From NCBI GenBank assembly GCA_022827325.1, contig JAJDTE010000067.1, positions 41,120 to 105,119 of the forward strand: a DNA stretch of 64,000 bases, in the 5' to 3' direction. The notes under the pieces were generated by a model. The model was not told the DNA's origin, ran no database searches, and saw only the letters and a list, made by a program, of their open reading frames with translations. Shown one piece after another: positions 167 through 52,710 of this stretch; position 1 is the first letter of the stretch; each line of letters starts with the position of its first letter. A program made the position numbers and the translations under genes. The DNA is from Gammaproteobacteria bacterium (GTDB lineage Bacteria; Pseudomonadota; Gammaproteobacteria; Arenicellales; Poriferihabitantaceae).

Positions 167-180
167 CGCCTATCCATATG

Positions 181-537
181 GGGGTGACTGGCTTCGACGT
201 CGGTCGCGAAACCATCGGAGCATGCCGAGGTGCAGAGTTCCTCGCAAATCCAGCTGCACAACAATAGTTGCCAACGACGACAACTACGCACTGGCGGCTT
301 AAGTCCCGCTAGTCCTTCCACCCGGCTCGCCTGTCGGCTTGGGCTCGGAAGGTCATTCCAGACAGGATCGCTTGCCGGCTGTGCCTGTTAGCCGGCTGCT
401 AAAGGTAAGCAGGCTCGCCGTCCGGTAAGTTTGTCTGCCGACTGGCCGGACGGTTAACCTGAAGCGCAGACTAAGCATGTAGTTGCCGGTGAGCGTAGGG
501 CTTGCGGACGCGGGTTCAATTCCCGCCACCTCCACCA
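181..537 (+). ncRNA. ssrA: tmRNA (transfer-messenger RNA, one-piece)
   Basis: 5' GGGGTGACTGGCTTCGACG tRNA-like acceptor start at 181. Internal tag reading frame gcc aac gac gac aac tac gca ctg gcg gct taa at 270-302 (ANDDNYALAA stop). 3' T-arm/acceptor GGACGCGGGTTCAATTCCCGCCACCTCCACCA ends at 537. Confidence 0.95.
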
Positions 538-28757: not shown

Positions 28758-30431
28758 TCAATCTTCCGTTGGTGCCTTGAACAGATCCTTGCGCAGGGTC
28801 ATCAGTGCCCCGGGATCGATCTTGCCCTGGATCACGGTCGTCTCGTTGCTGGCCAGCGCGTTCGTCAGTGCCGGGCCCATCTCACCCGGACCTTCGACCC
28901 AGATTCCCTGTCCGCCGCAAAGTTCGGCGAACTTGTCGAACCGTGGCGATGTGATTTCGGCTCCGAGAAGCCGCCCGCCGTAGAATTCCTGCTGATAGGC
29001 CATCTCGGCCCCCCAGGCCGCATTGTCGAGAACAACGATCACGACAGGCAAATCGTGGGAGATGGCCGTCTGGATCTCGATCATCGTATAGCCGATGGCG
29101 CCGTCGCCCATGACAGCCACGACCGGACGGTCGGGAGCCGCAGCCTTGGCTCCGATGGCGGCAGCCAGGCCAAAGCCCACCAGCCCGAAGTCCAGGGGCG
29201 TGATCAGGGACCTGGGCTCGAAATGAGCCAGCCGGTCGGCGGCCTGCAGGCAGGTATTTCCCGTGTCGAGTGTCACGATGGCGTTCTTCGGCAGAGCGTC
29301 CCTGATTTCGGCCAATGCGCGGCGTGGATGCAAGGGCAGCGTATCGATGGAGGCCTCCTCGGCGCGTTCTTCCCACAGGCTCTCCATTCCGGAATGGAAC
29401 TCCTCTCTCCATTCGTCGCAATCAGGGCGGCGGGCCGTCATGGACAATGCCTCGGCAGTCAGCCGGGCGTCGCCCTGGGCGGCAATCTCGGCCGGGAAGT
29501 AGCGACCCACCGCCGAGCCTTCGATGTCCACATGGGCGATGCGTGTATCCGGTCCCACGTAGTCATTGCTGTGGAAGGTGGAGTTGAACCCCAGCCGGGC
29601 GCCAAGGACAACCATCACATCGGCCTCCCTGGTCAGGCGGCTGGCCACCCGGTTGCCGCGTGGGCCCGCCTGTCCCGCAAACCACGGATGGCGATGAGGC
29701 ATGACGTCCGCATGGCCGGTCGAGGCGACCACCGGCACCTCCAGCCTTTCCGCCAGGGCCGTCAGGGCATCGCGCCCCGCGCCCCACTTGAAACCGGCGC
29801 CCGCGAAGATGACGGGGCGCCTCGCCTCCGCCATCATTCCCGCAATGGCGGCAACCTCATCGGGTGCCGCAGGCCCCGGCCGGACGAAATTCACCGGCGA
29901 GGGTTCCATGGCGGGAAGTTCGGCTGCAAAGAGATCCCGCGGCACATGCAGCACCACGGGACCGCGCCGCCCGCTATTTGCGAGCCGGATCGCGTCTTCG
30001 AGCATCGGGGGCAGTCGCGAGGGCTCGGTCACCAGGATCGAGCGCTTGCAGATCGGCGCAAACAGCGCCACCTGATCGACCTCCTGAAACGTATCCTTGG
30101 CAAGGTCGGCCCGGGTGATTGCCCCGGCGATGACCACCAGGGGTGAATAGGCCAGGTGCGCCTCGGCCACCGCGGTCACGATGTTAACCACACCCGGCCC
30201 TGCCTGCGCGCCCAGGACGACACCGGGCTTGCCGGTCATGCGGGCCCAGGCATCGGCCATGTGGCCTGCCGCACGTTCGTCCCTGGACCCGACATAGGCG
30301 ATCTCGCCACCCTGATACATGGCATCGTAAAGTTCGAGCATCGACCCGCCCAGCAGGCCGAACACTGTATCGATGCCATTGGCTTTCAGAACTCGATAGA
30401 CGGCTTCGCCGCCATTGATCATTGCCATCAT
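28758..30431 (-). CDS. Thiamine pyrophosphate-binding enzyme (acetolactate synthase large subunit / sulfoacetaldehyde acetyltransferase-like)
   Basis: 557 aa with the three-domain TPP enzyme pattern. The TPP-binding motif is GDGAIGYTMIEIQTAISHDLPVVIVVLDNAAWG. The start ATG immediately follows the upstream gene's TAA stop (TAAATG). Confidence 0.85.
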   Translation of the reverse strand: MMAMINGGEAVYRVLKANGIDTVFGLLGGSMLELYDAMYQGGEIAYVGSRDERAAGHMADAWARMTGKPGVVLGAQAGPGVVNIVTAVAEAHLAYSPLVVIAGAITRADLAKDTFQEVDQVALFAPICKRSILVTEPSRLPPMLEDAIRLANSGRRGPVVLHVPRDLFAAELPAMEPSPVNFVRPGPAAPDEVAAIAGMMAEARRPVIFAGAGFKWGAGRDALTALAERLEVPVVASTGHADVMPHRHPWFAGQAGPRGNRVASRLTREADVMVVLGARLGFNSTFHSNDYVGPDTRIAHVDIEGSAVGRYFPAEIAAQGDARLTAEALSMTARRPDCDEWREEFHSGMESLWEERAEEASIDTLPLHPRRALAEIRDALPKNAIVTLDTGNTCLQAADRLAHFEPRSLITPLDFGLVGFGLAAAIGAKAAAPDRPVVAVMGDGAIGYTMIEIQTAISHDLPVVIVVLDNAAWGAEMAYQQEFYGGRLLGAEITSPRFDKFAELCGGQGIWVEGPGEMGPALTNALASNETTVIQGKIDPGALMTLRKDLFKAPTED

Positions 30432-32843
30432 TTACTCCTCGGATCGGGGCCGCAGGTTTTGCGGGTCATAAAGGGCGTCGCTGTGGACGGTAACGGGGAT
30501 TTCACGGTTCAGGATCTGGACCGTCAGGCCATCGCGCGGGGTGCCTTCGCGGACAAAGAGCCAGCCCAGCGATTTCCCGATGGTGTAGCCGTAACCGCCA
30601 GAGGTGGTCAGGCCTACCGGCCTGCCGCCCCGCAGGACAGGTTCGCCGCCGTGAATATCCATGTCGTCGGCATGCAGTTCCGCGTAGAACAGTTCCCACT
30701 CCGGCGCGCGCCTCAACAAAGCCTCCCTGCCGATGAAATCACGGCCCTCGGTCGCGACAAATCGGTCAAGCCCCACGTCAAATGGACCGATATCCGGGGT
30801 GAGTTCGCCGGAGGCGGGAAAGGCTTTTTCCATCCGCATCCCGTTGAAGGCGTAGGAGCCAAGATCGGTCAGCCCGTGCTGCTCCCCGCCCTCGAACATC
30901 GCATCGTAAAGCTGCCCGATCCGCTCGAGAGGGACGTGGAGTTCCCAGCCCAACTCCCCGACGAAGGACATCCTGAGAGCGTAGCAGGGAATGCCCGCGA
31001 CCGCGATCTCCTGCCCCGACAGCCACGGAAATGCGCCATTGGACAGGTCGGCGTCCGTCAGTTCCGAAAGAATTCGCCGGGACATCGGCCCGGAAAGCGC
31101 CAACATTCCCCAGGCATCCGACCTGTCGACCAGCTGCACGTCATCGCCCGGGCGAATATGCGACTCGATCCACTGGAAGTCTGGACCCGAACGGGCAATG
31201 GCGGATCCGGTGAAATACCGGTCCCCCGCGATCCGCCAGATGGTCATCTCGGTTTCGAACCGCCCCCTGGGGGTCAGCAGGTGGTTCAGGCTGATCCGTC
31301 CGTCCGTGCGGGGAATGCGGTTCGCGGAGAGACGATCCAGCACCGCTCCCGCGTCCTGTCCCGTGATTTCGAACTGGGCAAAGGCCGAGAGATCAATGAC
31401 GCCGGCGGCGGTGCGTGCAGCCCTGGCCTCGCGCCTGGCGTTTTCATGTCAGGACTGGCGGCCCCAGCCGATCTTCTCCCGCTCGCCGACCTCGCCGAAA
31501 TAGCGCGGGCGTTCCCAGCCCGCGACTTCGCCAAAGACCGCCCCCTTGGCGGCCAGTCGCCCGTAGAGCGGATGCCTGCGTAACGGGCGCAGGCTTTCGA
31601 GCTGCCCTCCGGGGCAGGGAGTGTCATGCCGCCGCATGAATTCGTCCTTGGTTCTTTCGACGATATAGGTGTCGTCCGCAAAGCTGCAGAAGCGGCGGGG
31701 GTCGAAGCCGCGGGTGCTGATCTCGGCCTCGCCGTGCACCATCCAGTCCGCCAGGACCTTGCCCGCGCCGCCGCCCCAAGCGAGACCGATGGACGATCCG
31801 CAGGACAACCAGACATTCGGTGCTCCCGACGGGCCGACCAGCATGCCGCCGTCGGGCGTATGGGTAATGGCGCCGCGGACCACGCGCTTGATGCCCAGTT
31901 CGCCGAGTACCGGCATCTTTTCGAAAGCGACCGCCAGGAAATCGCCGATCGAGTCATAGTCGGCCGCGAACAACTCGTTCTCCGCTTCCCAGGGCGCGCC
32001 CTGGGGCATCTGCCAGACGGTCGGGCAGACATGGCCTTCGTAAATGCCGATCAGCCCCGATTTCTGCTCCTGCCGGATGTAGCCGCCAAAGGCATTGTCA
32101 CGCATCACCGGCAACTCGGGCCGTCCGGCGAATTCGGGCACCGTATCGGTGACGAGGTAGTGGTGAAGACAACTGACCGAAGGAATCCTGAGCCCGAACC
32201 ATTCGCCCACCTGATTGGCGTAGGACCCGGCGGCGACGATCACGTGCTCGGCCAGCACTTCGCCCTTTTCCGTTCGCAGGAGCCACAGATCGCCCCGGCG
32301 CGAGGCGCCCGTGACCCTGTTATGCCGCTCGATCATCGCCCCCCGTGCACGCGTGGCGGCGGCCAGTGCCATGGTGACGCCCGACGGATCGACATGGCCG
32401 TCCTCGAAGGTCTGGACCGCAGCCCTGATGTCCGAGGTCCTGTAGAACGGATTGCCCCTGGCCACTTCCGCGGGTCCGACCAGTTCCATGGGCAGATCCA
32501 GCAGCCTGCCGACGCCCATGATGGACTTCATCCAATCCACCTCGTCTTCGGTGGTGGCAATGCGAAAGCCGCCCACCCCGTGCCATCCGATGCTCTGACC
32601 GGTTTCCGCCTCGGCGCGTTGATAGACTTCGATCGATTTCTTGTTGATCCAGCCCATGATCCGGCTGCCCACCGCATGGGCGATCTGACCCGCGGCGTGC
32701 CAGGTGGAGCCGCTGGTGAGTTCCGCCTTTTCGAAGAGGATCGTGTCGGTCCACCCGTTTTCGGCCAGTTGGTACTGGGCCGCGACCCCCATGATCCCGC
32801 CGCCGATGATGGCCACCCGCGTGGTCCGGATCGCATCCGTCAT
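30432..32843 (-). pseudogene. FAD-dependent oxidoreductase + GcvT-fold (dimethylglycine/sarcosine dehydrogenase-like) gene interrupted by one in-frame TGA
   Basis: ORFs 31449-32843 (DAO domain, VAIIGGGIMGVAAQYQL) and 30432-31343 (GcvT C-terminal part) are in the same frame. The frame is 804 codons long and is broken only by TGA at 31449-31451. The intact paralogs next door are 800 and 807 aa. Confidence 0.8.
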
Positions 32844-35242
32844 GCAAAGGCCTCTTTCGCGGGCTTGAGGGTGGCGCGGGCCGCGAACCGGGTGCAGGCG
32901 ATCTCGACCTCGAAACCCGGGACGATGGTTTCGCGTGCCAGCCGGTCAAGCGGGGCTGTCAGCATCGCGAGCGCCACAGAACGCCCGAAGCGGTAACTCC
33001 ACGTCGCCGAGGTGATCTGGCCCGCCACGGCGCCGTCGAAAAAGACGGGTTCGTCATGGATGGGGATCGCGTCCGGTTGATCGAACAGGATCGATGCGAT
33101 GCGGCGGGCGGGTTCCTCGGCCCCCCGCAGGGCCTCTTCCCCCACGAAGCCCGATCCCATGGCACAGAATCGGCTGAGTCCGGCCTCGAGTGGTGTCGTG
33201 CCGGGCGTGAGTTCGTGGCCAAAGGCGCGAAAGCCGCTTTCGATCCGCAGGCTGCCACTGGCGTACAGCCCGGCATGGGCGGCGCCCGCGGCCACCAGAC
33301 GTTCATGCGCGGCCATCGCCATTTCAGCGGGAATATAGAGCTCGAATCCCTCTTCGCCGGTATAGCTGAGCCGCCCGGCCCAACCGCGTGCGAGTCCGAT
33401 TTCCACCGGGGCAAAATGAAACCGTTTGAGATCGGGAACCGGAGTGTTTGTCGTGGCCTGCAGTACATCCCGCGCTTGCGCCCCGGCAAGGCCAAGGATC
33501 GCGTAGCCGCTGGTGACATCGACGAATTCAACCCGAAGATTCCCACGGGTTTCCCGGATGCGCTTGAGGCCCCGCACCACTTCGCCCGCGCCGACGATCA
33601 TCAGGTAGCGGTCCGGCCCGTGGCGCTGCACCGTCAGGTCGCTTTCGATTCCTCCGCGCGCGTTCAGGATCTGGGTGTAGGCAATCCGACCCTCGGGAAT
33701 ATCCATCTGCGCGGTGCAAAGCTGATTGAGAAACGCACAGGCATCCGGCCCTTGAATCCAGATTTTGCCGAAGGCGCTCTGATCGAGAATGGCCGCCCCA
33801 TGGCGGCAGGCGTCCACCTCGCGGCCGACCTGTCCGCGCCAGGCGGGCACCCCGAAGGTCAGCGGCAGATGCGCCGCCTCGCCGTCGAAATGCACCGCCC
33901 GTTCCCAGCCGCCCCTGGCCTCGAACCGCGCGCCCGCTGCCAACAGCCCGGCATGCACCGGCGACCGGCGCTGCCCGCGTGCGGTCTCCATCGAGCGCCC
34001 CGGATAGGGATTTTCGTAGTGGCGTCCCAACACTTCGGGGATGCGCGACTCCAGCGCGCCAAGCACATTCATCTCGGGGCCGTAGCGTCGGATGTCGGCC
34101 TCGTTCAGTTCCATCGTTGGCTCACCGGCGATGATCCATTCCGCCATTGCCTTGCCCGCACCACCGGCCAATGCGATGCCGGTGGAGTTCATGCCGCCCA
34201 TCAGGAAAAGCCCCGGCACCTCGGGGCTTTCCCCGAGCATGAACTGGCCGTCAAGGGTAAAGCTCTCCGGCCCGTTCAGCAGCATCCGCACCTCTGCCCG
34301 CTCCAGGGCCGGGATTCGCCGCAGTGCGTTTTCCATCATCGGCATGAAATGATCCCAGTCCTCGTCCAGCAAGTCGAAGCTGAAATCGGCGGGCAGACGA
34401 TCCAGCGGCAGGCCCTTGGCATGCGGTTCGAAACACCCGACCAGCAGTCCCTCGACGTCGTCACGGGCGTAAAGACACCCGTCCTGGTCGTTCAGCGTGG
34501 GCAGATGGGCGCCGGGGCCGAGGGCCTGAATCTCGGGGATGGGCCTGGTCAGTATGTAGAAATGCTCGCAGGCATAGAGCGGCATATCGGCGCCCGCCAT
34601 CGCCGCCACCTCGCGCGACCAGAGCCCGCAGGCAACAACCACCTCCCCGGCCTCGATGACATGGTCACCCACTTCAACGCCCGATATCCGCCCGGATTTC
34701 CTTCGCAGGCCGGTAACTCTTGTGTCCTCAAAGAAGCGCACCCCCTTCGCCTTTGCCCCTTTCGACAGGGCAAGCGCCACATCCGAGGGATTCACCCGCC
34801 CGTCGGCAGGCGACCAGACGGCGCCCATCACGTCATCCGTTTCGATCAGGGGCCACAGGTCCCTGGCGCGGGCGGCATCGACCACCTGCGCTTCCAGCCC
34901 GAAGGCACGGCCCAACGACACCTGCCGTTTGATATTGGTAAGCCGATCCTCATTCGTGGCGAGCGTGAGGCTGCCGGTTTGTACCCAACCCGTGGCCTGC
35001 CCGGTCTCCCGCTCCAACTTGCCGTAGAGGTCCACAGAATAGTCTATGAGCCTGGTCAGTGTGGCCGACGGCCGCAATCTGCGCACCAGTCCTGCGGCAT
35101 GCCACGTGGTGCCCGAGGTCAGTTTGGCACGTTCCAGCACCACGATGTCCTGCCGCCCCTCGCGGGCGAGGTGGTAGGCGACAGAACAACCGATCACACC
35201 GCCACCGATGATGACCGTGCGGGACTGGCCGGGAAGCGTCAC
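32840..35242 (-). CDS. FAD-dependent oxidoreductase fused to aminomethyltransferase (GcvT) fold, dimethylglycine/sarcosine dehydrogenase-like
   Basis: 800 aa. N-terminal dinucleotide-binding motif VIIGGGVIGCSVAYHLA and a DAO domain. The C-terminal GcvT-like folate-binding region contains SYTGEEGFELY. Confidence 0.88.
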   Translation of the reverse strand: MTLPGQSRTVIIGGGVIGCSVAYHLAREGRQDIVVLERAKLTSGTTWHAAGLVRRLRPSATLTRLIDYSVDLYGKLERETGQATGWVQTGSLTLATNEDRLTNIKRQVSLGRAFGLEAQVVDAARARDLWPLIETDDVMGAVWSPADGRVNPSDVALALSKGAKAKGVRFFEDTRVTGLRRKSGRISGVEVGDHVIEAGEVVVACGLWSREVAAMAGADMPLYACEHFYILTRPIPEIQALGPGAHLPTLNDQDGCLYARDDVEGLLVGCFEPHAKGLPLDRLPADFSFDLLDEDWDHFMPMMENALRRIPALERAEVRMLLNGPESFTLDGQFMLGESPEVPGLFLMGGMNSTGIALAGGAGKAMAEWIIAGEPTMELNEADIRRYGPEMNVLGALESRIPEVLGRHYENPYPGRSMETARGQRRSPVHAGLLAAGARFEARGGWERAVHFDGEAAHLPLTFGVPAWRGQVGREVDACRHGAAILDQSAFGKIWIQGPDACAFLNQLCTAQMDIPEGRIAYTQILNARGGIESDLTVQRHGPDRYLMIVGAGEVVRGLKRIRETRGNLRVEFVDVTSGYAILGLAGAQARDVLQATTNTPVPDLKRFHFAPVEIGLARGWAGRLSYTGEEGFELYIPAEMAMAAHERLVAAGAAHAGLYASGSLRIESGFRAFGHELTPGTTPLEAGLSRFCAMGSGFVGEEALRGAEEPARRIASILFDQPDAIPIHDEPVFFDGAVAGQITSATWSYRFGRSVALAMLTAPLDRLARETIVPGFEVEIACTRFAARATLKPAKEAFA

Positions 35243-36528
35243 TCAAACGCCCCGTCGCGGACCATGTCAGACAGCGTTGCGCGAAACGCCCCAAGCGCCT
35301 CGTCGATCAGATCGGGAGTATGGGCAGCAGATGTCAGCCCCGACGTATGGGACATCATGTCCACGCCGTGCGCCAGCATGCCGTCGCGATAGGCGCGGAC
35401 CTGCGCCTTCGGCAGCCCGCGGATCTCGGCGGGGGTCAGGGTATCCGGGCTGCCTCGCCCGAAATACAGGTGGATGACCGAACTGTCGCCATAGGCGAGG
35501 CCCGATATGCCCGATTCGGCCATTGCCGCGTTCATTCCATCGCGCATCCGGGTTGCCATGGCATCGGCCTTGGCCTGCGCTTCCCCTGACGCAAGCAGAG
35601 GCATCGCGGCACAGGCGGCGGCAGCGACCAATGGGGATCCGTTGAATGTGCCCTTGTGGCTGACGGCCGGCGCGAAACCTTCACGCTCCGTGGCATTGTT
35701 CATCAGTTCCATGATCTCGGCCCGTCCGCAGACCGCGCCCCCCGGGAGCCCCCCGGTAACGATCTTGGCCAGGGTGGTCAGGTCCGGCTCGATCCCGTCA
35801 CGTGCCTGACGTCCCCCGGGGGACCAGCGGAACCCGGTAATGATCTCGTCAAAGATCACCACCGCGTTGAAGCGGCGCGCCACGTCGCGAAGGGCGCGCA
35901 GGGTATCCGTGGGCAAGGGCACGCACCCGTAATTCGCCCCGGAAGCCTCGATAATCACGGTGCCGATCCGATCGTCCTGCAATGCGCTTTCCATCGCCCG
36001 GGGGTCGGCGGCGCACACCTGGACCAGATCGTCGATCGCAGCGGGAATGCCCAGGGAAGCGGCCTGGCCGCTTCCGGGTGTTGCCCCTTTCAGCACCTGA
36101 TCGTGCCAGCCATGATAATGGCCGTCCACCCGCAGTACATGCTCCCTGCCCGACCACGCCCGCCCAAGCCGGATGGCCAGCATTGTGGCCTCGGTTCCGG
36201 ATGCCGTGAAACGGGTGCGTTCAGCACAGGGATAAAGCCGGTTGATCCATTCCGCCCAATGAATCTCGGCCTCGTGGCAATCCGCCGAGAAGATCGAGCG
36301 CCCGGCCTGCTTCTGCACGGCCTCCACGATCGCCGGGTGGCAGTGACCCAGCATCTGGCTGGCTGATCCCATCTTGAAGTCGATATAGCGCCGTCCTTCG
36401 GCGTCCCATTTTTCAGCGCCCAATGCCCGGTCTATGAAAATCGGATGCGGTTCGCGAAATCGAAGCTCGTGGCTGATCCCGCCGGGCAGGGCCCTTTTCG
36501 CCCGCAAGGAAAGGGATTTGCTCGTCAT
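35239..36528 (-). CDS. Class-III aminotransferase (glutamate-1-semialdehyde aminomutase-like)
   Basis: 429 aa with RAKRALPGGISH, FTASGTEATMLAIRLGRA and FDEIITGFR. It has 4-nt overlaps with both neighbouring genes. Confidence 0.85.
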   Translation of the reverse strand: MTSKSLSLRAKRALPGGISHELRFREPHPIFIDRALGAEKWDAEGRRYIDFKMGSASQMLGHCHPAIVEAVQKQAGRSIFSADCHEAEIHWAEWINRLYPCAERTRFTASGTEATMLAIRLGRAWSGREHVLRVDGHYHGWHDQVLKGATPGSGQAASLGIPAAIDDLVQVCAADPRAMESALQDDRIGTVIIEASGANYGCVPLPTDTLRALRDVARRFNAVVIFDEIITGFRWSPGGRQARDGIEPDLTTLAKIVTGGLPGGAVCGRAEIMELMNNATEREGFAPAVSHKGTFNGSPLVAAAACAAMPLLASGEAQAKADAMATRMRDGMNAAMAESGISGLAYGDSSVIHLYFGRGSPDTLTPAEIRGLPKAQVRAYRDGMLAHGVDMMSHTSGLTSAAHTPDLIDEALGAFRATLSDMVRDGAFE

Positions 36529-38069
36529 GCGTCTCTCCCGATACGGGCGCGGCTCAGCCGGATATCGAACCGCTCCCGCAAGGCGCGGTCCGTCGCATCA
36601 TCGATGTGGGTTGGGAAATGGGTCCCCAGCACGGCACGGGCCTTTTCGCGGGCCACATCCCCAATGGGACGGGCGCCGTCGTCGGCCCAGTCAGACGGGC
36701 TGCGCCTGTCACCCGCAACCGGATAGAAATAGTCGGATTTCATCCGGTCAAACGTGTGCGTCTCGCCCAGATAGTGCCCCGGTCCCTGGCACACATTGGT
36801 GATGACATCGGCGGCGATGTTATCCGGGGTCGCCTCGACCCCCCTGACCGTCCGCAGGATATTGCCCAGGAGATCGTTGTCACTGACATACCCCTCAAGC
36901 GACACCGCCAGAAGACTGGCATGACTGCCGGCGGCCTGGGTGATGATGTTCGATCCGGCATGGGCCGCGAGCGCCACGGCAAGCGACTTTTCGGCCCCAT
37001 ACTGCGCGTCGAGCGTTTTGGAGTCGGTGATTCCGGCAATCGAACTGGTAGGCAGATCGAAATGCCGTCCCATCTGCGCCGCCGCGGCCATCAGGATTGC
37101 CTGCTCGCCGCCCCCGCCTGACATCGAGCCGGTGCGCAGATCGGCGACCAGGGGCTTCGGGGCGAAGATCGCCATGACCCCGGGATCAACCAGCCGGGCA
37201 AAGACAAGTCCCGCCAGGGTCTCGGCCACCGCCTGTGCCAATGATCCGGCAATGGTTGCCGGGCTTGTCGCGCCTGCCTGGCCTGCGCTGATGAGCTGCA
37301 CCGGAAAACCCGCCCGAATCGCTTCTTCCAGAACCTCGCAGGCTTCTTCGGCAAATCGCATGGGCGGTACGACGTGGCAGACCAGGACCGTCATGAAAGG
37401 CCGGGCGCGGAATGCGGCCTCGTCCCCGGCGATGGCATAGCAGAGATCGGCAATGGGCCGGACGTTTGCAGCCTCGGTGATCGAGATCGACACGTGCTTG
37501 GCCGTACCCGCCAGACAGGCATAGGCCGTATTCAGGTCCATCGCACAATTGTCTTCCACATCCCGCGCGACTACAGGGCGGCTGAAATGGTGGATGTTCT
37601 CCATGGCATCGACGAGCCGTGCGGAATCGTAGAGATCGGCCAGGGTCGATTCACGATATTCGCCGGTGTCGATGTCGAAAATCCCCGGGGCCGCGCCGCC
37701 GGTCGATGTGTGCACCCGGGCATGATCGATCTTCAGATCATGCTCGGGTCTCTGGCCCCGCAGGTGAAACCGCCGGTGGGCCTCTTTGACCGATTGCCGA
37801 ACCAAATCCCTGGGGAACAGCAGCCGTCCCTCGCTGGACAGTTCACCGCCGGCACCGCAGACCATTTCGATCATGGAAGGGATGGCCTGGCTCAAGCCCA
37901 GGGTTTCCAGCAACGTCAGCGCGGCCTCCTCGATCAAGTCCACTTCTGCGGGAGCAAGGGGCTTGAATCGTCCACCGACGACGCCCGGCCAGACAGACAG
38001 GGCATCGTCTTGGGTTTCGGACTGGGACAGGCGCTCCTTGCGACCGCGGCGGCGGGCATTTCTGGACAT
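36525..38069 (-). CDS. Trimethylamine methyltransferase (MttB) superfamily protein, non-pyrrolysine type, copy 1
   Basis: ORF 36525-38111; the likely start is ATG 38069 (MSRNARRRGRK...), which parallels the MMTRSARRR N-terminus of copy 2. The size (~515 aa) and sequence pattern match COG5598/MttB-like proteins. There is no in-frame TAG. Confidence 0.8.
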   Translation of the reverse strand: MSRNARRRGRKERLSQSETQDDALSVWPGVVGGRFKPLAPAEVDLIEEAALTLLETLGLSQAIPSMIEMVCGAGGELSSEGRLLFPRDLVRQSVKEAHRRFHLRGQRPEHDLKIDHARVHTSTGGAAPGIFDIDTGEYRESTLADLYDSARLVDAMENIHHFSRPVVARDVEDNCAMDLNTAYACLAGTAKHVSISITEAANVRPIADLCYAIAGDEAAFRARPFMTVLVCHVVPPMRFAEEACEVLEEAIRAGFPVQLISAGQAGATSPATIAGSLAQAVAETLAGLVFARLVDPGVMAIFAPKPLVADLRTGSMSGGGGEQAILMAAAAQMGRHFDLPTSSIAGITDSKTLDAQYGAEKSLAVALAAHAGSNIITQAAGSHASLLAVSLEGYVSDNDLLGNILRTVRGVEATPDNIAADVITNVCQGPGHYLGETHTFDRMKSDYFYPVAGDRRSPSDWADDGARPIGDVAREKARAVLGTHFPTHIDDATDRALRERFDIRLSRARIGRDA

Positions 38070-38316
38070 TATTTCATGAGAAAAACATTGTCCCAAAGAA
38101 ATAGAAGCCAAATTTCAGTTTCAAATCATAGTACAAAATGAATTTGACCTTTTGCAGGAAATATTGAAATTTATGACTGATAAAGATCAATTGACGACAT
38201 GACATGTACATGGCCATGAGTACTCAGACCACAGATCGAAAAAACGGTTTTCCGCCTTCACCCCGAAACCAGGCGAAAGCGCAGGCAGCGGACCCTCTGC
38301 ACAGGAATTGACCGGG
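38070..38316 (-). promoter_or_regulatory. AT-rich intergenic region inside the catabolic supercluster (probable internal promoter/operator)
   Basis: This is the only long gap (about 250 nt) in an otherwise overlapping gene chain, and it is conspicuously AT-rich at 38075-38200. It contains perfect palindromes TCAATTGA (38187-38194) and CATGTACATG (38203-38212). Confidence 0.4.
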
Positions 38317-40740
38317 TCATCCCCGGCAACGGTGATTTTCGGGATCATAAAATGCCTTTTCCGAGATGGTCGCCCTGCGGCCCTCACCCAATATCTCGAT
38401 TTCGAGATCAAGTCCGGTCAGCGGCACACGGCCCTGGAGGTATCCCAACGCGACCACTTTGCCAATGCGATACCCGCAACTGGCGGAAGTGACATAGCCA
38501 ACACGTTTCCCCCGATGGAGAATCGGATCACCGGGCATGGGTTCGCTGTCCGCAATGTCGACGATCAATCTGACGAATCGCCATTCCGGACCAGCCGCCC
38601 CTTGTCCCAAGACGGCTTCCCGACCGATGAAACCCGTCCTTTGGAGGTCGACATGCTTTTCCAACCCGGCGTCGAACATCGTGTATTCAACACCCAGCTC
38701 AGCCCCCCAGCCGTGATAGGCTTTCTCGATTCTCATGGCGTTCAACGCGTAGGAACCGAAATCGACCAGGCCGTGTCGGGTTCCAGCCTGACAAATCGCC
38801 AGATAGACCTGTTCAAGGTTCTCCGAGGACAGATGCAGTTCCCAGCCGAGTTCACCCACGTATGACACGCGCATCGCGGTGGCGGCAAAGTCTGCAATCC
38901 GAATTTCCTCTACTGACATCCACGGCATGTTTTCTCTCGACAGGTCTGCGTCGCACAAGCCCGACAGCAGATCCCTGGATCCGGGTCCCATCACCATCAG
39001 CACCCCGTCACGTCGGCTTCCGCGACGCAGCTGCACCGAGTCGTCTTCGGGCAGATAGCGGCACAGCCAGTCGTAGTCACGCTGATCGGCGAGAGTTGGC
39101 CCGCACAGCAGATACTGATTCCGGTCCAACCTGGCAATGGTCGCTTCACTCCAGATCCTTCCTTTGGCGGTCAGCATGTATGCGAGCCGGACCCGGCCGA
39201 CTCCGGGCAGGCGCCCGCAGAAGACCCGGGCGAGAAATGCGGTCGATCCCGGACCCTCGATTTCAAACTTGGTAAAGCCGCCGTGATCCATGATCCCGAC
39301 TGCGTCCCGTACCGCCTCGCACTCACGGCGGACCGGGTCACGCCAGGGTTCGATGGTACGGAAACTGAGAAGATCCGAATGGCCCCGATGATCCTGATCG
39401 AACCAGAATGCCCGTTCCCAGCCGGCGATCTGGCCGAATACGGCGCCCCTGTTCCAGAGTGCCTGATACAGCGGTGTTTTCTGCACAGGCCTGCCGGACC
39501 GGATGTTCCGGTTGGGAAATGGAATGGCGTATTGCAAATCATAGAGTTCGACAATGCGCCGCCGGGCATATTCCGGCGTTGCCCAGTCGCCGAAACGCCT
39601 CGGATCCCAGGCGGCATGGTCCCATTCGGTTTCACCTGCAGTAATCCATTCGGCGATCGCCTTGCCGACCGCGGCCGAATGGGTGATGCCGACCTGGATA
39701 CCACAGGCATGATAGAAATCGGGCAGGCCGCCGGCCGGTCCGCAAAGCGGCAGCGCGTCCGGTGAATATGCGATCGGTCCGTTTACAAAACGCTGAATCC
39801 GTATGTCGGCGAGTAGTGAAACATGCACTGCCGCCCGCCCGATCAGGTCTACGATGTCATCGACCGAATCCTCGAACAGGGAATGCGCGAATTCATCGGG
39901 AAGGCCATCAGGAAACGCCAGTCTCCCGGGATGTCCATAGGAGCCGAACAGCAGGCCGGCACGCTCACGGCGCAGGTAAAACCGGATGTCGGGATCGCGC
40001 ACCAACGGGAACAGGGCCTTGTCTTCGTCCAGGGCATCGATCGACTCGGTGACAATATACTGATGCTCGAGTGTTGCGATGGGCAGGCTTTGGCCCGTCA
40101 TAGCCGCAATCCTGTTGCCGTAAAATCCGGTGGCGTTGACGATTGCTTCGCAAACCACCTCTCCCCTGTCGGTTTCCACCACCCATTCTCCACCCGTATT
40201 TCGCCTGATCCCGATCACTGTGGTGAATCGCGCGACCTCGGCGCCGGCGTCACGTCCCCCCTTGGCCAGTGCCTGGGTCAGCTGACTTGGGTCTATATCA
40301 CCCTCGTAAGGATCGTAAATGCCGCCAATCACCGTATCTCCGGCCTTGTAGTATGGATGCAATGCTTCCATTTCAGGCGGGTCCAGCATCGTCAGTTCGT
40401 AGCCTGCCGATTTCGATACACCGACGACATGCCGGAACGAATCCATGCGGTCGCGGGTATGTGCCGGCCAGAATGCGCCGGTATGACGATAGGTGATCGG
40501 AGAGTCCGCCGCTTCAGACAGATTCCGGTAGAGTTGCCAGGCATAGTTGCCGGCGCGCATTCCGAGCCAGCTGTTGGCGTAGGTCGGTACGTTTCCGGCC
40601 GCGTGCCAGGTTGACCCTGAGGTCAACTCGTTTTTTTCAATCAACAGGCAATCGCGGACTCCAGCCAGGCAGAGATGGTACAGGCAGGAAGCGCCGACCA
40701 CGCCGCCGCCGATGATGACCACCCTCGCACCGGTTCTCAC
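38317..40740 (-). CDS. FAD-dependent oxidoreductase fused to GcvT fold, dimethylglycine/sarcosine dehydrogenase-like
   Basis: 807 aa. N-terminal VVIIGGGVVGASCLYHL and a DAO domain. The C-terminal GcvT-like region contains SYVGELGWELH. Confidence 0.88.
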   Translation of the reverse strand: MRTGARVVIIGGGVVGASCLYHLCLAGVRDCLLIEKNELTSGSTWHAAGNVPTYANSWLGMRAGNYAWQLYRNLSEAADSPITYRHTGAFWPAHTRDRMDSFRHVVGVSKSAGYELTMLDPPEMEALHPYYKAGDTVIGGIYDPYEGDIDPSQLTQALAKGGRDAGAEVARFTTVIGIRRNTGGEWVVETDRGEVVCEAIVNATGFYGNRIAAMTGQSLPIATLEHQYIVTESIDALDEDKALFPLVRDPDIRFYLRRERAGLLFGSYGHPGRLAFPDGLPDEFAHSLFEDSVDDIVDLIGRAAVHVSLLADIRIQRFVNGPIAYSPDALPLCGPAGGLPDFYHACGIQVGITHSAAVGKAIAEWITAGETEWDHAAWDPRRFGDWATPEYARRRIVELYDLQYAIPFPNRNIRSGRPVQKTPLYQALWNRGAVFGQIAGWERAFWFDQDHRGHSDLLSFRTIEPWRDPVRRECEAVRDAVGIMDHGGFTKFEIEGPGSTAFLARVFCGRLPGVGRVRLAYMLTAKGRIWSEATIARLDRNQYLLCGPTLADQRDYDWLCRYLPEDDSVQLRRGSRRDGVLMVMGPGSRDLLSGLCDADLSRENMPWMSVEEIRIADFAATAMRVSYVGELGWELHLSSENLEQVYLAICQAGTRHGLVDFGSYALNAMRIEKAYHGWGAELGVEYTMFDAGLEKHVDLQRTGFIGREAVLGQGAAGPEWRFVRLIVDIADSEPMPGDPILHRGKRVGYVTSASCGYRIGKVVALGYLQGRVPLTGLDLEIEILGEGRRATISEKAFYDPENHRCRG

Positions 40741-40742
40741 GA

Positions 40743-41447
40743 CTAGGCTTCATTCAGCAAATGACCGTACCCCGGAACCGCATCCCGGATTCCGGCTGCG
40801 CGCAGGGTCTGCCAGTAAACGGCGGCGTTGCAGGCAATGATGGTTTTCCCGGTTTCCCGCTCGAGTTCCTCGATCAGACCGATCAAGGGCAGGGCAGTGC
40901 CGACCTGTGCGATCGCATCGCAGTCGGAGGCAGCCAGTTCGTGAACCAGTTCGCGAATCCGGGACAGTGGCGTTTCGCAGATAGCCTCCAGGCTGGCCGC
41001 TTCGGTTCCCCTTACCGCAACTGCCTCGAATCCGCCATTCTCGATATTGGTCCTGACCACCCGGTTGACTTCCGCGTTGAACGGGGTGAGCACCGCAATC
41101 CGGCGGGCCCCCACCGCCTGCAGTGCATTCTGGAGTGCGACCGACGCATTGAAAACCGGGATACCCAGCCTGGCGGCCAGCATATCGCAACGGGCCGCCA
41201 GCTTGGCAACACCGTCCGGTCCGGCATCAGTGGTCAGGCCGATTGCCAGGGCCGCCGGTTTCACATCCATCAGTTTTTCCGCTTCTTCCGCCAGGTCGTC
41301 GGATATGTGGCTGCCGCCGAGACGAAAGCGTTGCATTTGATTGGTCACGCCGACGGGACGGAGCAATTCGAGTTCCGGCTGGACTACGCTGTTCATCGCC
41401 GGGGTCATGACGCCGATAATGGCGCGTGGTGCTAGCGTGTCCGGCAT
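40743..41447 (-). CDS. Asp/Glu/hydantoin racemase-superfamily protein (maleate isomerase / arylmalonate decarboxylase / EutA-like)
   Basis: 234 aa. The layout is typical of the COG3473-type family: IGVMTP...N, a central RIAVLTPF and a C-terminal GKTIIACNAAVYWQTLR. The catalytic residues are unclear. Confidence 0.6.
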   Translation of the reverse strand: MPDTLAPRAIIGVMTPAMNSVVQPELELLRPVGVTNQMQRFRLGGSHISDDLAEEAEKLMDVKPAALAIGLTTDAGPDGVAKLAARCDMLAARLGIPVFNASVALQNALQAVGARRIAVLTPFNAEVNRVVRTNIENGGFEAVAVRGTEAASLEAICETPLSRIRELVHELAASDCDAIAQVGTALPLIGLIEELERETGKTIIACNAAVYWQTLRAAGIRDAVPGYGHLLNEA

Positions 41448-41884
41448 TATGCTTTCTCCCGGAGATATTGGTCGAGCGCCAACTGGGCGTCACGGTAGAT
41501 CCTGTCACCAATGATTGATTCGAGTTCGTCGGCATCGGCGGGGTCGCAGTCAAACTCTCCCTGCCAGATCCCGAGCGTTCCGGCACCCTCGGTGATTTCA
41601 ATGAAACGATGGCAGGAAACATAGTTCCTGCATCGCAATGGGGATTCGATGATGTCGTAGACGTAAAAGTGTTCGAGATCCGAATGCGCCAGCAGGGTTT
41701 CCCGAAACTGCGTGCCATCCGCGATGCCGAGCACCCGGATCGATCCGACTTCGGTCGGCGAGCCCGTTTCCATACGTGCGTCCGTGACCCCCGGATTCCA
41801 GTCGGCCACGCGGTCGAAGCGGCGCACGGTGGACCAGACCCTGTCGATGGGCGCATGGATGACTACACTTCGCATTACTCTCAT
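41447..41884 (-). CDS. SRPBCC (START/polyketide cyclase-dehydrase-like) family protein
   Basis: 145 aa. The N-terminus IHAPIDRVWSTVRRFDRVADWNPGV and the overall pattern are typical of SRPBCC ligand-binding proteins. Confidence 0.6.
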   Translation of the reverse strand: MRVMRSVVIHAPIDRVWSTVRRFDRVADWNPGVTDARMETGSPTEVGSIRVLGIADGTQFRETLLAHSDLEHFYVYDIIESPLRCRNYVSCHRFIEITEGAGTLGIWQGEFDCDPADADELESIIGDRIYRDAQLALDQYLREKA

Positions 41885-43395
41885 GTTTTTTCCTCGATCA
41901 GCCTGATGTCGAACTCCCTGCGTATCGCGATTTCAGCCCGGCGCGGCAGATGTTCCGGCGGCTCCTGGCACAGGATATCCTGAACTCGCCGGTGCGCGCG
42001 CTGCCAGATCGACCGACTTCCCGATTCGACCCATTCCGGCACCGACTGGCGATCACCCAGTTGCGGATAAACGTACTCGGTCATCATCAAATCCAGAGTC
42101 TGGGGTTCACCAAGATAATGACCTTCACCACGGACCACGCGATCAATACTGCCGATGTCGAGAAAATCATCGCTGACTTCGATACCGCGCACAGTGCGCA
42201 GGACGGCGCCACACATTTCATTGTCGATGACCAGCGTCTCGGGGGACGCCACCATGATTGAGCCGAGCATTCCTACCGACAGGTTGATCATGTCGGCACC
42301 GGCCTGTGCGGCCAACGCGACACTATAGCCTTTTTCGTAACCGGCCTGGATGTCACCTACCTTCGAGTCGGTCATGCCGGCAGCAACCGTGGACGGCATT
42401 TCAAGCCTGCCAAGCAATTGCGCGGCGGCGGCATTGGCCAATGCCGATTCACCACTGCCACCGGTCATGGCCCCGGTGCGCAAATCCGAAATGAACGGCA
42501 GGAAGGCATGGATGCAAGCATGCCCGGGCTTTATCGCATCGACTACAACCGTTCCGGCAATCGATTCCGCCAGCCCCTGCGCCAGCGCACCTGCCAGCGA
42601 GGCCGGACTGGTGGCACCGGCCTGACCGGCGGTACATATCTGCAGCGGCATCCCGGCTGTGATCGCGGCACGCATGATTTCCACGCCTTCGGGGGAAAAT
42701 TTCAGCGGGGAAACGACATGCACGATGATGCCCATGCAGAACGGCTGCCGGCGAAATCCACCGTCACATCCCAGGGCCAGGTCGAACAGCCTGCAGACCT
42801 GCGCCACGTGCGCGGCATTGTCGAAACTGACGCCGATCGGTTTGCCGGTTGCCTTCAGGCAGGCAAACGCGGTATTGATATCAAGGTCGAGCGGGGTCGG
42901 CATGTCACGTGCTATCAGCAAACGGATGCCGTAGTGCACGTTTTCGCAGGCATCCAGTACCCTGGTAACCTGATACAGGTCAGCCAGGGTCGAGTCACGG
43001 TACTCGCCGGTTTCGGAATCAAGCGTTTGTACTGCCGCACCACCGGTACCGATATGAACGTAGCCGCCACCGATATCCAGACCCCGGTTTTCGTCGAAGC
43101 CGGGCAAGCTGACCCGGCCAGAGGCGCGCTTCAGCGCCCGTTCGGCCAGTATCCGCGGGATGGTCAGGCGACCGTCATCGCGCAGCCCCGCACCTTTGTC
43201 CAGCAATCGTTTTTCCAGCCATTCCGGTGATCCGGCAACACCCACGGCCTGTAGAATTTCGAAAGCGCTGTCGATTATCCGGTCGCATTCGCGATCACCC
43301 AGCGGTTGATAACGGCCGCCCTTGTACAGGGTCACGGGGGCAGTCCGGCCGGCAGATACGGGCGGTGCCCGGCGACGGGCGGAACGGGTCATCAC
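41881..43395 (-). CDS. Trimethylamine methyltransferase (MttB) superfamily protein, non-pyrrolysine type, copy 2
   Basis: 504 aa and a clear paralog of copy 1. Shared blocks include RESTLADLYD/RDSTLADLYQ, ISAGQAGATSPATIAGSLAQ/CTAGQAGATSPASLAGALAQ and GHYLGE. There is no in-frame TAG. Confidence 0.8.
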   Translation of the reverse strand: MMTRSARRRAPPVSAGRTAPVTLYKGGRYQPLGDRECDRIIDSAFEILQAVGVAGSPEWLEKRLLDKGAGLRDDGRLTIPRILAERALKRASGRVSLPGFDENRGLDIGGGYVHIGTGGAAVQTLDSETGEYRDSTLADLYQVTRVLDACENVHYGIRLLIARDMPTPLDLDINTAFACLKATGKPIGVSFDNAAHVAQVCRLFDLALGCDGGFRRQPFCMGIIVHVVSPLKFSPEGVEIMRAAITAGMPLQICTAGQAGATSPASLAGALAQGLAESIAGTVVVDAIKPGHACIHAFLPFISDLRTGAMTGGSGESALANAAAAQLLGRLEMPSTVAAGMTDSKVGDIQAGYEKGYSVALAAQAGADMINLSVGMLGSIMVASPETLVIDNEMCGAVLRTVRGIEVSDDFLDIGSIDRVVRGEGHYLGEPQTLDLMMTEYVYPQLGDRQSVPEWVESGSRSIWQRAHRRVQDILCQEPPEHLPRRAEIAIRREFDIRLIEEKT

Positions 43396-44762: not shown

Positions 44763-44993
44763 GTTCAGGTCCTGGCGGATTCCCGTGAATTGTTTCGGGG
44801 ATTGCAACCACCATGGGATGGAGGAAGCTCGGAAAAACTTGCCCTTGTGTCCGGCGACTGATTCCGGGAAATTCAGCCGGCCAGGCCCACTGAAGTTCCG
44901 CATTCTTGAATTGCCGCCCGATCACCCTGCGGAGCAGGTCATTGTTGATGGTATGCTACAATTCATGAACTTCAATCACATTTTTCTCATGTT

Positions 44994-50092: not shown

Positions 50093-50208
50093 GGTAAATC
50101 CGGCGTCGTGGTATTTTAAACGGCCGCCTATTTTACCGTGATTTCAGGAATTTGGCTGGCACAATTCCGGTGGGGACTGCACCGGGAAACCAGCCCCTCC
50201 CCCGCCGG

Positions 50209-51339
50209 TCAGGGCCTGATCCGGGTTCCCGGAACCTGCTTCGGAAAGAAATCCTCGCAGCCCCCTTCCCGGTAAACGTCGGCGGTGGAACAGTGCAGGC
50301 CGCCGCCGAACGGATACGCGTCACGGAACGGCAACGGAATCACGTTCATCCCCAGACGATCCAGCTGTTCCATCTGCTGCACCTCGCTGGCCTCAACGAT
50401 CACGGTTCCGTGATCCAGCACCAGGCAGTTCATGGACAGCCAGACACTGGAGTAACAGAGCGGCGGCGGGGTCTCATGGGCAGGCTGGGCGGCGTCCACG
50501 ATTTCCCAGTCATTGGCCTCGAAAATCTTCCGTTGCGCCTCCGGCAGGCGACGGTTGGGATTGTTGATGATGAGGCCCGGCCGAAGCGGCACGAAGGTGG
50601 CATCGATATGGATCGGATAGGGGTCGCCGGGAAAATTCACGGCATGGACGCGGTGGTCGGGAAAATGTCGTTGCAGCCATTCCATGGCCCGGCGGTTGGT
50701 GGTGAGTCCATGCTGGCAGAACAGGTCCTTGCCGAGGCGCATGACGTCGGCCGCGTCGAACAGCGGTTCGGCCTCCGTGGTCACGAAATCCAGCGCGGCG
50801 GTGCGCTCAAGCCGCTCCTTGATGGTGATGTCGTCAAAATAGCCCGCCTTGTAGGAGCGGTCATCCAGGCGGGGACGGGGCGCCTGCTCCCAGCGGAAGT
50901 TGGGATCCTCATCGAAATACCGCTGCATCAGGTCGTGATAGGCGAGGTACTCGAAGTAGCGGCAGCGAAAGGACATTGCCGCGGAAAGAATCTCGTTCCC
51001 CACCGTGAGCAGAACGTCACGGGGCGGCATGCAGCCGAACTGGCTGCCGGTCGTGAAGTCCGGCGTCACCACGGCCTGATTCCACTGGATCGGTGTCGGC
51101 CGGTCCACCCGGATACCCCTTTCCTCCAGCACCCTGACCAGGCTGTCCAGCTGGGCGTTGGCCTTCTCCACGGTCTCCAGGGGCCGAGGGCCCCACATGC
51201 CGTGCATGTCGCTGTCCTCGGGAACCTTGGCCTCGGTGGCAGGCTCGCTGGGAGGGATGCAGGTATGGTCGGCCCGGCCGACGATGATGTGCTTCAGCGG
51301 ATCGAACTCGTTCCAGGAATTGACGACGGTATTGGCCAT
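50209..51339 (-). CDS. Amidinotransferase family protein (glycine/inosamine-phosphate amidinotransferase-like)
   Basis: ORF 50209-51510; the likely start is ATG 51339 (MANTVVNSWNEFDPLKHIIVG). Contains IHIDATF and the C-terminal catalytic-Cys motif GGGLHCSTADVYREG, which resembles the GGGFHC motif of AGAT/StrB1. Confidence 0.85.
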   Translation of the reverse strand: MANTVVNSWNEFDPLKHIIVGRADHTCIPPSEPATEAKVPEDSDMHGMWGPRPLETVEKANAQLDSLVRVLEERGIRVDRPTPIQWNQAVVTPDFTTGSQFGCMPPRDVLLTVGNEILSAAMSFRCRYFEYLAYHDLMQRYFDEDPNFRWEQAPRPRLDDRSYKAGYFDDITIKERLERTAALDFVTTEAEPLFDAADVMRLGKDLFCQHGLTTNRRAMEWLQRHFPDHRVHAVNFPGDPYPIHIDATFVPLRPGLIINNPNRRLPEAQRKIFEANDWEIVDAAQPAHETPPPLCYSSVWLSMNCLVLDHGTVIVEASEVQQMEQLDRLGMNVIPLPFRDAYPFGGGLHCSTADVYREGGCEDFFPKQVPGTRIRP

Positions 51340-51510
51340 GGCAAAAAAGGGAAAGGACTCACCAGAGAAAACCGCGCTAATATAGTCGAAGTCGGTGGCA
51401 CATTGCAGCAAAATCATCCGGCCCCGTCTTGCCGAATTCCCGATCCATGAACCAAGGACCGGCACCGTGCGGCGTACGGCAACCGGTCGCGACCGGGTTC
51501 GGCGCCACAA

Positions 51511-52710
51511 TCAGACACCAGCAACCATGTTGCCGGGCCGCCTCCTTGCAATCCACGCGGCAATGACCAGGCTTGCCAGAGCCAGCACGAGAATAAGGCC
51601 AACCAGCACCTCCGCCCTCGGCTGGACTTCCATGACATGCCCGGTGATTGCGGTGACGGCCGCACCCACGACCACAACGACCGCACCGGACAGGCCTGAT
51701 GCGCTCGCCGACAGTTCCTTGCGCATGAACATGACCAGGGAGCTTGCGCCCGGCATCGTCAGGCCGTTTCCAAATCCCACGAAGACAATGCCGCCAAACA
51801 GGCTCCATGGCGTCACCCATCCCGCCAACAGCACCGCCAGACATCCAACAAGTCCCAGGTTCGCCATGATGCGGCCGAACACAATCATCGTATCCAGATC
51901 ACGGGAAGCGGAATACCTGCCGGACAGGAAGCTGCCGAACAGGAAGCCAACGGTGATCGTCGCCATTCCAAGACCGATCTGGGACTCCGGCAACCCCAGC
52001 TGCTCGCCAGCGACATACGGTATGCCGGTGATAAAGGCAAAGAACCCGCCAACCGAGAAAGCCATGATGAGCGTATATGCCCAGAAATGCAGGTTGGCCA
52101 GCAGTTCCCGGTAGGATCGCACAAAGGACGAACCGTTTCCGGCGTCTCCACCCGCGGTTTCCGGGAGTTGTACCAGAACCAAAACCCACAGACCGACCCC
52201 GGCAGCGGTGAACACCCAGAAATTGGCCCGCCATCCTGCTATTTCACCCAGAAACCCGCCAATGGACGGGCCGATGATCGGGGCAAGACTCATCGCCATG
52301 GCCATGTAGCCGAGTATGCTCGCTGTCTGCTTCAGTCCGGCGATATCGCTCACGACGGCCCGGGACAGGGCTGTGCCCGTGACCACCGCGCCCTGCAGTA
52401 CACGGAAAAAGAGAAACGATTCGAAACTGCCGGCAAATGCACAGCCGACCGATGCGGCGACAAACAGCGCCAAGCTCGCAAGAAGGACCGGCCGGCGGCC
52501 ATATCTGTCTGCAATCGGCCCCGCGAAGATCTGAATCACCGCCGTAAAGGCCAGATAGCCCGACACCGCCAGGGACATCGTGTCATACCCCACCCGGAAC
52601 TCACCGGCCATTACACCCAACGACGGCAGAAACATGTTGAGCGACAGCAGGGGAACCGATGTCAGCAGTATCAGCGTCAGAATCGGCTTTGAGTCGGATG
52701 CCTGTGCCAT
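51511..52710 (-). CDS. MFS transporter, Bcr/CflA subfamily
   Basis: ORF 51511-52740; the likely start is ATG 52710. A 12-TM protein with the motif GPIADRYGRRPVLL. Confidence 0.85.
   Translation of the reverse strand: MAQASDSKPILTLILLTSVPLLSLNMFLPSLGVMAGEFRVGYDTMSLAVSGYLAFTAVIQIFAGPIADRYGRRPVLLASLALFVAASVGCAFAGSFESFLFFRVLQGAVVTGTALSRAVVSDIAGLKQTASILGYMAMAMSLAPIIGPSIGGFLGEIAGWRANFWVFTAAGVGLWVLVLVQLPETAGGDAGNGSSFVRSYRELLANLHFWAYTLIMAFSVGGFFAFITGIPYVAGEQLGLPESQIGLGMATITVGFLFGSFLSGRYSASRDLDTMIVFGRIMANLGLVGCLAVLLAGWVTPWSLFGGIVFVGFGNGLTMPGASSLVMFMRKELSASASGLSGAVVVVVGAAVTAITGHVMEVQPRAEVLVGLILVLALASLVIAAWIARRRPGNMVAGV

Follow-up and report, generated by a model that had tools for sequence, protein, structure and literature searches.

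The question raised by this locus is whether a single in-frame TGA has disrupted a gene, is read through or recoded, divides the gene into two working parts, or is an error in the assembled sequence. The window that was analysed is the whole 64,000-nucleotide (64 kb) stretch of contig JAJDTE010000067.1, which comes from a metagenome-assembled gammaproteobacterial genome. The TGA interrupts an 804-codon frame on the minus strand that encodes an enzyme resembling dimethylglycine dehydrogenase (DMGDH). We consider it probable that the TGA is a real, recent, and lineage-specific nonsense mutation through which one redundant paralog has been lost or strongly knocked down, and that any read-through as Trp is no more than a trace. 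The substitution, its absence from all relatives, its presence in two BioSamples, and the integrity of the remainder of the gene were all observed directly. As a nonsense allele of a symbiont genome assembled from a metagenome it is ordinary, and the phenomenon is already known and not surprising. The interrupted frame comprises the features below.

30432..32843, minus strand: whole interrupted gene (803 sense positions and TAA), a DMGDH/sarcosine-dehydrogenase-like flavin adenine dinucleotide (FAD) oxidoreductase fused to a GcvT folate-binding domain
31449..31451, minus strand: in-frame TGA, codon 465, with TGG (Trp) as the ancestral state
31449..32843, minus strand: upstream open reading frame (ORF), the 464-amino-acid (aa) product expected from termination at the TGA, with DAO, FAO_M, and the initial ~35 residues of the GCV_T region
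30432..31448, minus strand: stretch 3' of the stop, 338 codons that are still open, with GCV_T from profile position 28 and GCV_T_C
31341..31343, minus strand: GTG, codon 501, the first in-frame start candidate past the stop, which opens the 303-aa ORF reported by gene callers

Translation of 32843..30432 gives 804 codons that end in TAA and have codon 465 as their sole internal stop, which bears out the claim of an earlier sequence-only reading that the TGA alone interrupts the frame. The minus strand reads GGC CGC CAG TCC TGA CAT GAA AAC GCC, where the TGA occupies 31451..31449 and is followed by a C. The gene was found to contain no further stop and no frameshift. The upstream ORF matches the Pfam families DAO (3e-50) and FAO_M (4e-09), and the part downstream of the TGA matches GCV_T (2e-61, from profile position 28) and GCV_T_C (5e-13). 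All four domains are found on a single chain in both paralogs of the gene; for the interrupted gene, this is true of the conceptual read-through product and not of the product as encoded. The G+C content at third codon positions is coding-like on either side of the TGA (0.84 upstream and 0.77 downstream). Coding-like composition on both sides together with one complete domain architecture indicates more than a chance adjacency of two ORFs.

The family of the enzyme was assigned through an intact ortholog (P0001) that is 98% identical to the interrupted gene. This ortholog matches the DMGDH structure 5L46 at 4e-147 over residues 10-795, and both the human and rat DMGDH structures match it over the full length at E ~1e-147. 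The same four-domain architecture is shared over the full length with mitochondrial DMGDH (5L46 and 4PAB) at E ~1e-147 and with Arthrobacter dimethylglycine oxidase (DMGO; 1PJ5) at 1e-77. No NCBIfam model scored above its own cut-off for the enzyme of the interrupted gene, and a substrate assignment was not obtained by that route.

The codon aligned to the stop is TGG in 81 of the 81 orthologous loci from other genomes and metagenome contigs. This set was drawn from genome collections and metagenome contigs, and its members range from 99% to 67% identity to the intact ortholog P0001. Trp occupies the position of the stop in all 100 full-length orthologous proteins (100/100), and human DMGDH also has Trp at the position aligned with codon 465. 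Intact 803-aa orthologs are abundant (98% to 69% identity). Three syntenic strains (L003, L084, and L087) share ~97% nucleotide identity with the window, and the latter two were recovered from other samples in the same study. The flanks of the codon in L003 are identical to those of the window (CGCCAGTCC-TGG-CATGAAAAC), and L004 likewise has TGG with identical flanks. Since TGG is present in every relative, the lesion is one G-to-A transition that is private to this strain lineage. The single TGG to TGA transition that had been proposed is thereby supported, and the comparison of orthologs that had been suggested along with it returned TGG for all relatives and TGA for none.

The sequence-only reading had also placed a Trp opposite the stop in both paralogs by a gapless alignment from a shared GWER motif. 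The stop stays in the conserved Trp column in a formal multiple alignment made with MAFFT, and both paralogs have Trp there. The gapless spacing holds for the 800-aa paralog, where 19 residues separate GWER from the W, and does not hold for the 807-aa paralog, where the distance is 22 residues and three gap positions are needed.

The window and L084 were compared over 22.4 kb that contain 13 genes. They differ by 664 mismatches and five indels, and each indel either lies between genes or has a length divisible by three. Across those 13 genes, no difference from L084 other than the TGA breaks a reading frame. No second case of a single stop that parts two coding-like stretches of one gene was found when the whole window was scanned. 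The intact (Trp) version of this exact allele was not found by exact look-up in a collection of 15 billion proteins, and no intact twin has been sampled. Scans of JGI metagenomes with a degenerate pattern gave 0 matches for the TGA allele and 0 for the TGG control, and they are uninformative because the lineage is absent there.

A sequencing or assembly artefact, where the true base would be G, had been listed among the alternatives. The window derives from a metagenome assembly, and the same 464-aa product is recorded on an NCBI contig of 117,893 bp, is encoded exactly on the ENA scaffold KELL22-1_SAMN22237333 (L001), and is found on the Logan contig of SRR16351682 (L002), which matches the window at 100% identity. 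The NCBI contig is probably the one from which the window was taken, because L001 ends near window position 38,873. All three assemblies seem to have been built from a single read set of the first BioSample, which favours the artefact. So does the strain heterogeneity within the first sample that is evident from the 4 mismatches between L001 and the window in 13.4 kb, none of which is at the stop. However, the second BioSample, SAMN22237332 (L089/L090), was sequenced independently and has the same TGA in a haplotype that shares 99.8-99.99% identity with the window across 20.7 kb. The haplotype of the gene also carries 19 further private substitutions, some of them 40-160 nt from the stop, and 22 kb are free of any other frame-breaking difference. 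With the TGA in a second BioSample and in three assemblies, an error in sequencing or assembly is now very unlikely. The label KELL22-1 presumably refers to the Ircinia sponge study of Kelly et al.

Inside the gene, the second BioSample differs from the window only by three single-nucleotide polymorphisms within 15 bp (window 31968-31982; L089 1362-1376; codons 288-292). They include E288Q, a variant that is present in TGG strains too. The pattern resembles a micro-recombination tract or a mixture of strains that the assemblers resolved in different ways.

The UGA lies exactly at a Trp position, as in organisms that reassign UGA to Trp, and this invites the explanation that UGA is recoded by dedicated means, namely as selenocysteine, by a UGA-to-Trp code, or by a suppressor tRNA. 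One bacterial symbiont with such an evolving code appears in the part of the literature consulted (PMC10540940). However, TGA ends 27 of the 37 coding-like long ORFs in the window, including the gene directly upstream, and its role as the main terminator excludes code reassignment. The site is also the only one of its kind in 64 kb. Selenocysteine is excluded by three results taken together. Homologs have Trp at the position and not Cys or Sec. The fold of the 86 nt that begin at the stop is less stable than that of the average shuffle (minimum free energy -24.9 kcal/mol against a shuffle mean of -30.2, z = +1.5), with no SECIS-like or stimulatory structure after the TGA in that fold. Rfam matched only a transfer-messenger RNA (tmRNA) in the window. 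The stop is conserved in 0 of the 81 other loci and its flanks are the same as those in TGG alleles, so a programmed read-through site is not supported. We regard dedicated recoding as having almost no probability.

The leech Providencia symbiont is reportedly an example of UGA-to-Trp reassignment in reduced symbionts. The likeness to such symbionts consists of an in-frame TGA at a conserved Trp in a host-associated bacterium. In contrast to them, the genome studied here has 62% G+C and TGA as its main terminator, only one such site is found, and the relatives have genomes of ~5 Mb.

Another explanation takes the stop as the junction of a functional split gene, where an active enzyme would be assembled from the 464-aa oxidase portion and a GcvT portion with its own translation start. 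Heterotetrameric sarcosine oxidase, with its separate beta and alpha subunits, serves as the model for this arrangement. The stop is close to where the flavin module gives way to the folate module, and some enzymes of the wider family carry the two modules on separate chains; the alpha subunit of sarcosine oxidase matches residues 416-798. However, the stop lies ~27 profile positions within GCV_T and not at the edge of the domain. The first in-frame start is 36 codons downstream with a poorly spaced Shine-Dalgarno sequence, and a product initiated at GTG codon 501 would be without the conserved GCV_T residues 466-500. A stop inside GCV_T and a start that loses those residues make a functional two-chain enzyme unlikely. 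The orthologs are single-chain in 81 of 81 cases, and the split-gene explanation as a whole is highly improbable.

The nonsense mutation that we prefer would act as follows. One G-to-A transition changed the codon of the invariant Trp465 from TGG to TGA in one of three paralogous DMGDH-like genes of a sponge symbiont. Ribosomes would terminate at codon 465 and free a 464-aa fragment that is without the folate-binding GcvT domain. The enzyme activity would then be lost, or would be reduced to the trace level permitted by read-through with near-cognate tRNA-Trp. The two intact paralogs in the same gene neighbourhood would make the lesion tolerable, and the lesion would be recent relative to the ~2% synonymous divergence of the lineage.

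The age of the stop was examined through the substitutions that are private to this allele. The pairwise dN/dS of the interrupted gene is 0.136 (L003) and 0.177 (L004) and that of its neighbours is 0.105-0.189, values that are uninformative on recent relaxation, and private-branch counts were used in their place. Private sites are those where the window differs from L003, L005, L006, L084, and L087 while those five agree. The whole gene has 14 synonymous and 5 non-synonymous private substitutions in addition to the stop, and omega on the private branch is ~0.12 (597 synonymous and 1812 non-synonymous sites). Neutrality over the whole private branch is rejected gene-wide (p = 1e-5), and the neutral share of that branch is at most about a fifth (~0.2). 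The low omega means either that the stop is young compared with the ~2% synonymous divergence or that the gene is still constrained, and these two would look the same in sequence data.

Several points weigh against the loss of function. The part downstream of the stop has 6 synonymous and 3 non-synonymous private changes (omega ~0.17) with no relaxation seen, and neutrality is rejected there as well (p = 0.01), which is how a still-functional gene would look. In two samples the assembly shows the TGA allele, as the majority form, and the allele is thus not a fleeting variant. The loss of activity itself is predicted from the domain content of the 464-aa fragment.

The same allele is altered at a second invariant residue, which is located as follows.

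31686..31688, minus strand: private codon TGC (Cys386), which is GGC (Gly) in every relative

Gly386 is present in 100 of 100 full-length orthologs, in both paralogs, and in human DMGDH. Invariant columns are affected by 2 of the 5 private amino-acid changes in this allele and by none of the 21 changes in the other strains (p = 0.03 with the stop and 0.16 without it). G386C gives a weak hint of decay.

The private substitutions are also clustered, where 7 of the 20 fall within 107 codons round the stop (31368-31688, minus strand, codons 386-492; Poisson p ~0.02). G386C, R413G, W465stop, and A478T belong to this cluster. The cluster may be a short tract that was acquired by recombination from a lineage not yet sampled, or a sign of locally relaxed constraint.

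The explanation that would fit continued constraint is a leaky but functional gene, or pseudo-pseudogene, where near-cognate tRNA-Trp restores the wild-type residue, sufficient full-length enzyme is produced to keep the gene under purifying selection, and the stop acts as an attenuator of expression. Read-through by tRNA-Trp would regenerate the wild-type protein, and UGA is reported to be decoded mainly by near-cognate tRNA-Trp or tRNA-Cys (PMC5373646; PMC9122581). The low omega of the private branch (0.12 for the whole gene and 0.17 downstream), the absence of a second disabling lesion in the gene, and the finding of the allele in two samples all agree with this explanation. Published surveys have identified bacterial in-frame stops with dN/dS well below 1 (PMC7918605), nonsense pseudogenes have been reported to be translated at a low level (PMC9122581), and UGA is the leakiest and most misread stop in E. 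coli reporters, where read-through of stop codons is ~1% (PMC10959953). However, a young stop predicts an equally low omega and the power is low with 9 private changes downstream. The stop is found in no relative, no stimulatory structure follows it, and G386C at an invariant Gly hints at relaxed rather than maintained constraint.

The leakiness of UGA should also not be carried over directly. Much of it in E. coli K-12 has been attributed to a defective, weak variant of release factor 2 (RF2) and is not seen with B-type RF2 (PMC5373646), and the genome studied here mostly terminates by TGA. A genome that ends most of its genes with TGA would be expected to terminate efficiently at that codon. 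The sequence-only reading had supported read-through with the C that follows the stop, and described UGA followed by C as the weakest termination context in E. coli. This was not confirmed in the literature searched, and the 3' neighbour that favours suppression of UGA by tRNA-Trp is A and not C, as cited in PMC9122581. The read-through alternative survives, but the argument for it is weaker than stated on account of the RF2 variant, the use of TGA as the main stop, and the neighbouring base. We consider the leaky functional gene unlikely, although recent pseudogenisation and low-level read-through would not be separable from sequence alone.

A further step would be that selection has kept the TGA as an attenuating leaky stop that supplies a low level of wild-type enzyme through tRNA-Trp, which we judge to be quite improbable. 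If true, the symbiont lineage of one host species would have turned down one of three paralogs while the gene was kept, and the coupled TPP-dependent enzyme encoded downstream would perhaps be turned down too. The locus would then be a natural case of Trp-restoring UGA read-through that tunes expression, a phenomenon that has already been proposed in the literature.

Two published systems are comparable to this locus. The pseudo-pseudogenes of Salmonella Typhi and Paratyphi A (Feng et al. 2022, PMC9122581) are similar in that a gene of a host-associated bacterium is disrupted by a nonsense codon with an adjoining C, and low-level translation across the nonsense stops has been documented for them (PMC9122581). 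They differ in that the read-through there was mostly at UAG and the single peptide-mapped UGA was read as Arg with a candidate SECIS (selenocysteine insertion sequence) element (PMC9122581). The in-frame stops of Belinky et al. 2021 (PMC7918605) are similar in that the gene is intact apart from a single nonsense codon and its dN/dS is well below 1. Unlike those cases, the stop here is found in one strain lineage (two samples) with no sign of long-term retention or reversion.

The neighbourhood of the interrupted gene contains both intact paralogs and the other genes of the operon, all on the minus strand; TPP stands for thiamine pyrophosphate.

38069..36525, minus strand: MttB-family methyltransferase, upstream operon gene
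36528..35239, minus strand: class-III aminotransferase, upstream operon gene
32840..35242, minus strand: intact 800-aa paralog, directly upstream, with a TGA stop that overlaps the ATG of the interrupted gene (ATGA)
28758..30428, minus strand: TPP-dependent enzyme gene, downstream, with a start directly next to the TAA that ends the interrupted gene (GAGGAG TAA ATG ATG)
38317..40740, minus strand: intact second paralog in the adjacent cluster, an 807-codon ORF that is called as 801 aa in relatives

The operon runs from the MttB-family methyltransferase through the class-III aminotransferase, the 800-aa paralog, and the interrupted gene to the TPP enzyme. Its junctions overlap by ATGA (methyltransferase and aminotransferase), GTGA (aminotransferase and 800-aa gene), and ATGA (800-aa gene and interrupted gene), and the interrupted gene is joined to the TPP-enzyme gene by GAGTAAATGATG. 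The 4-nt overlaps imply translational coupling. The position that had been described for the gene, in the middle of a coupled operon with its TAA adjoining the ATG of the TPP enzyme, was found to be correct at all junctions. The 1 kb of mRNA left untranslated beyond the stop may weaken the expression of the TPP enzyme, either through lost translational coupling or through Rho-dependent polarity.

The operon holds an MttB-family methyltransferase, an aminotransferase, and a TPP enzyme, and this context suggests a methylated amine other than that of DMGDH or DMGO. The region 28758-44903 (minus strand) consists of two adjacent clusters, and each cluster has an MttB-family methyltransferase of the non-pyrrolysine type, DMGDH-like paralogs, and a class-III aminotransferase. 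The best NCBIfam matches of the TPP enzyme that closes the first cluster are sulfoacetaldehyde acetyltransferase (Xsc) models, below their cut-offs (407 vs 620 bits). The second cluster also has an Amdase (Pfam), and Polyketide_cyc2 genes are found there in the syntenic relatives L003 and L084. The gene content of the two clusters would suit a pathway that demethylates a quaternary or N-methylated amine step by step until a primary amine remains, from which an aldehyde is then formed. A taurine-derived betaine as the substrate is speculation.

For annotation, the 464-aa and 303-aa ORFs should be treated as one disrupted DMGDH-like gene and not as two proteins. The metabolic reconstruction of this metagenome-assembled genome should accordingly count two intact paralogs in these clusters and not three. 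The significance of the finding beyond annotation is little.

The stretch at 38050-38220 (minus strand), upstream of the MttB-family gene, contains ~150 bp that are AT-rich in a genome of 62% G+C. A 47-aa ORF is called in this stretch in the close relatives and not in the 90%-identity lineage L004. A promoter or regulatory region is more likely here than a gene.

The close relatives of the window are labelled Gammaproteobacteria or Candidatus Poriferihabitaceae. A one-piece tmRNA is located at 180-537 (plus strand) with the tag ANDDNYALAA (ARAGORN; Rfam RF00023, 222 bits), and its form fits those labels. No RNA family besides the tmRNA and no tRNA genes were found in the 64 kb. The protein of the interrupted gene is 80-84% identical to orthologs from Alphaproteobacteria of the Roseobacter group (Ruegeria, Leisingera, and Shimia; loci L008-L083). 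A Roseobacter-like operon on a contig with a gammaproteobacterial-type tmRNA and gammaproteobacterial relatives suggests that the operon was transferred between the classes.

Two other candidates for broken genes were rejected. A protein of 408 aa (P0134) was considered as an independent frameshift elsewhere, but its contig is a long-read contig of 2x coverage with many broken genes. This contig (L086; ENA ERZ26693581 ctg345225_2x_l) has many fragmented genes of the cluster, and its breaks look like frameshifts from assembly errors and not biology, which calls for caution with truncated members of protein clusters. The possible second split gene at 51511..51513 (409 + 433 codons in one frame) was rejected because the ORF of 409 aa encodes an entire MFS transporter and that of 433 aa matches no family. 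The region 50152-51510 of the window contains two ORFs of ~432 aa that overlap almost fully, at 50152..51450 (plus strand) and 50209..51510 (minus strand), and the one on the minus strand is without a Pfam match.

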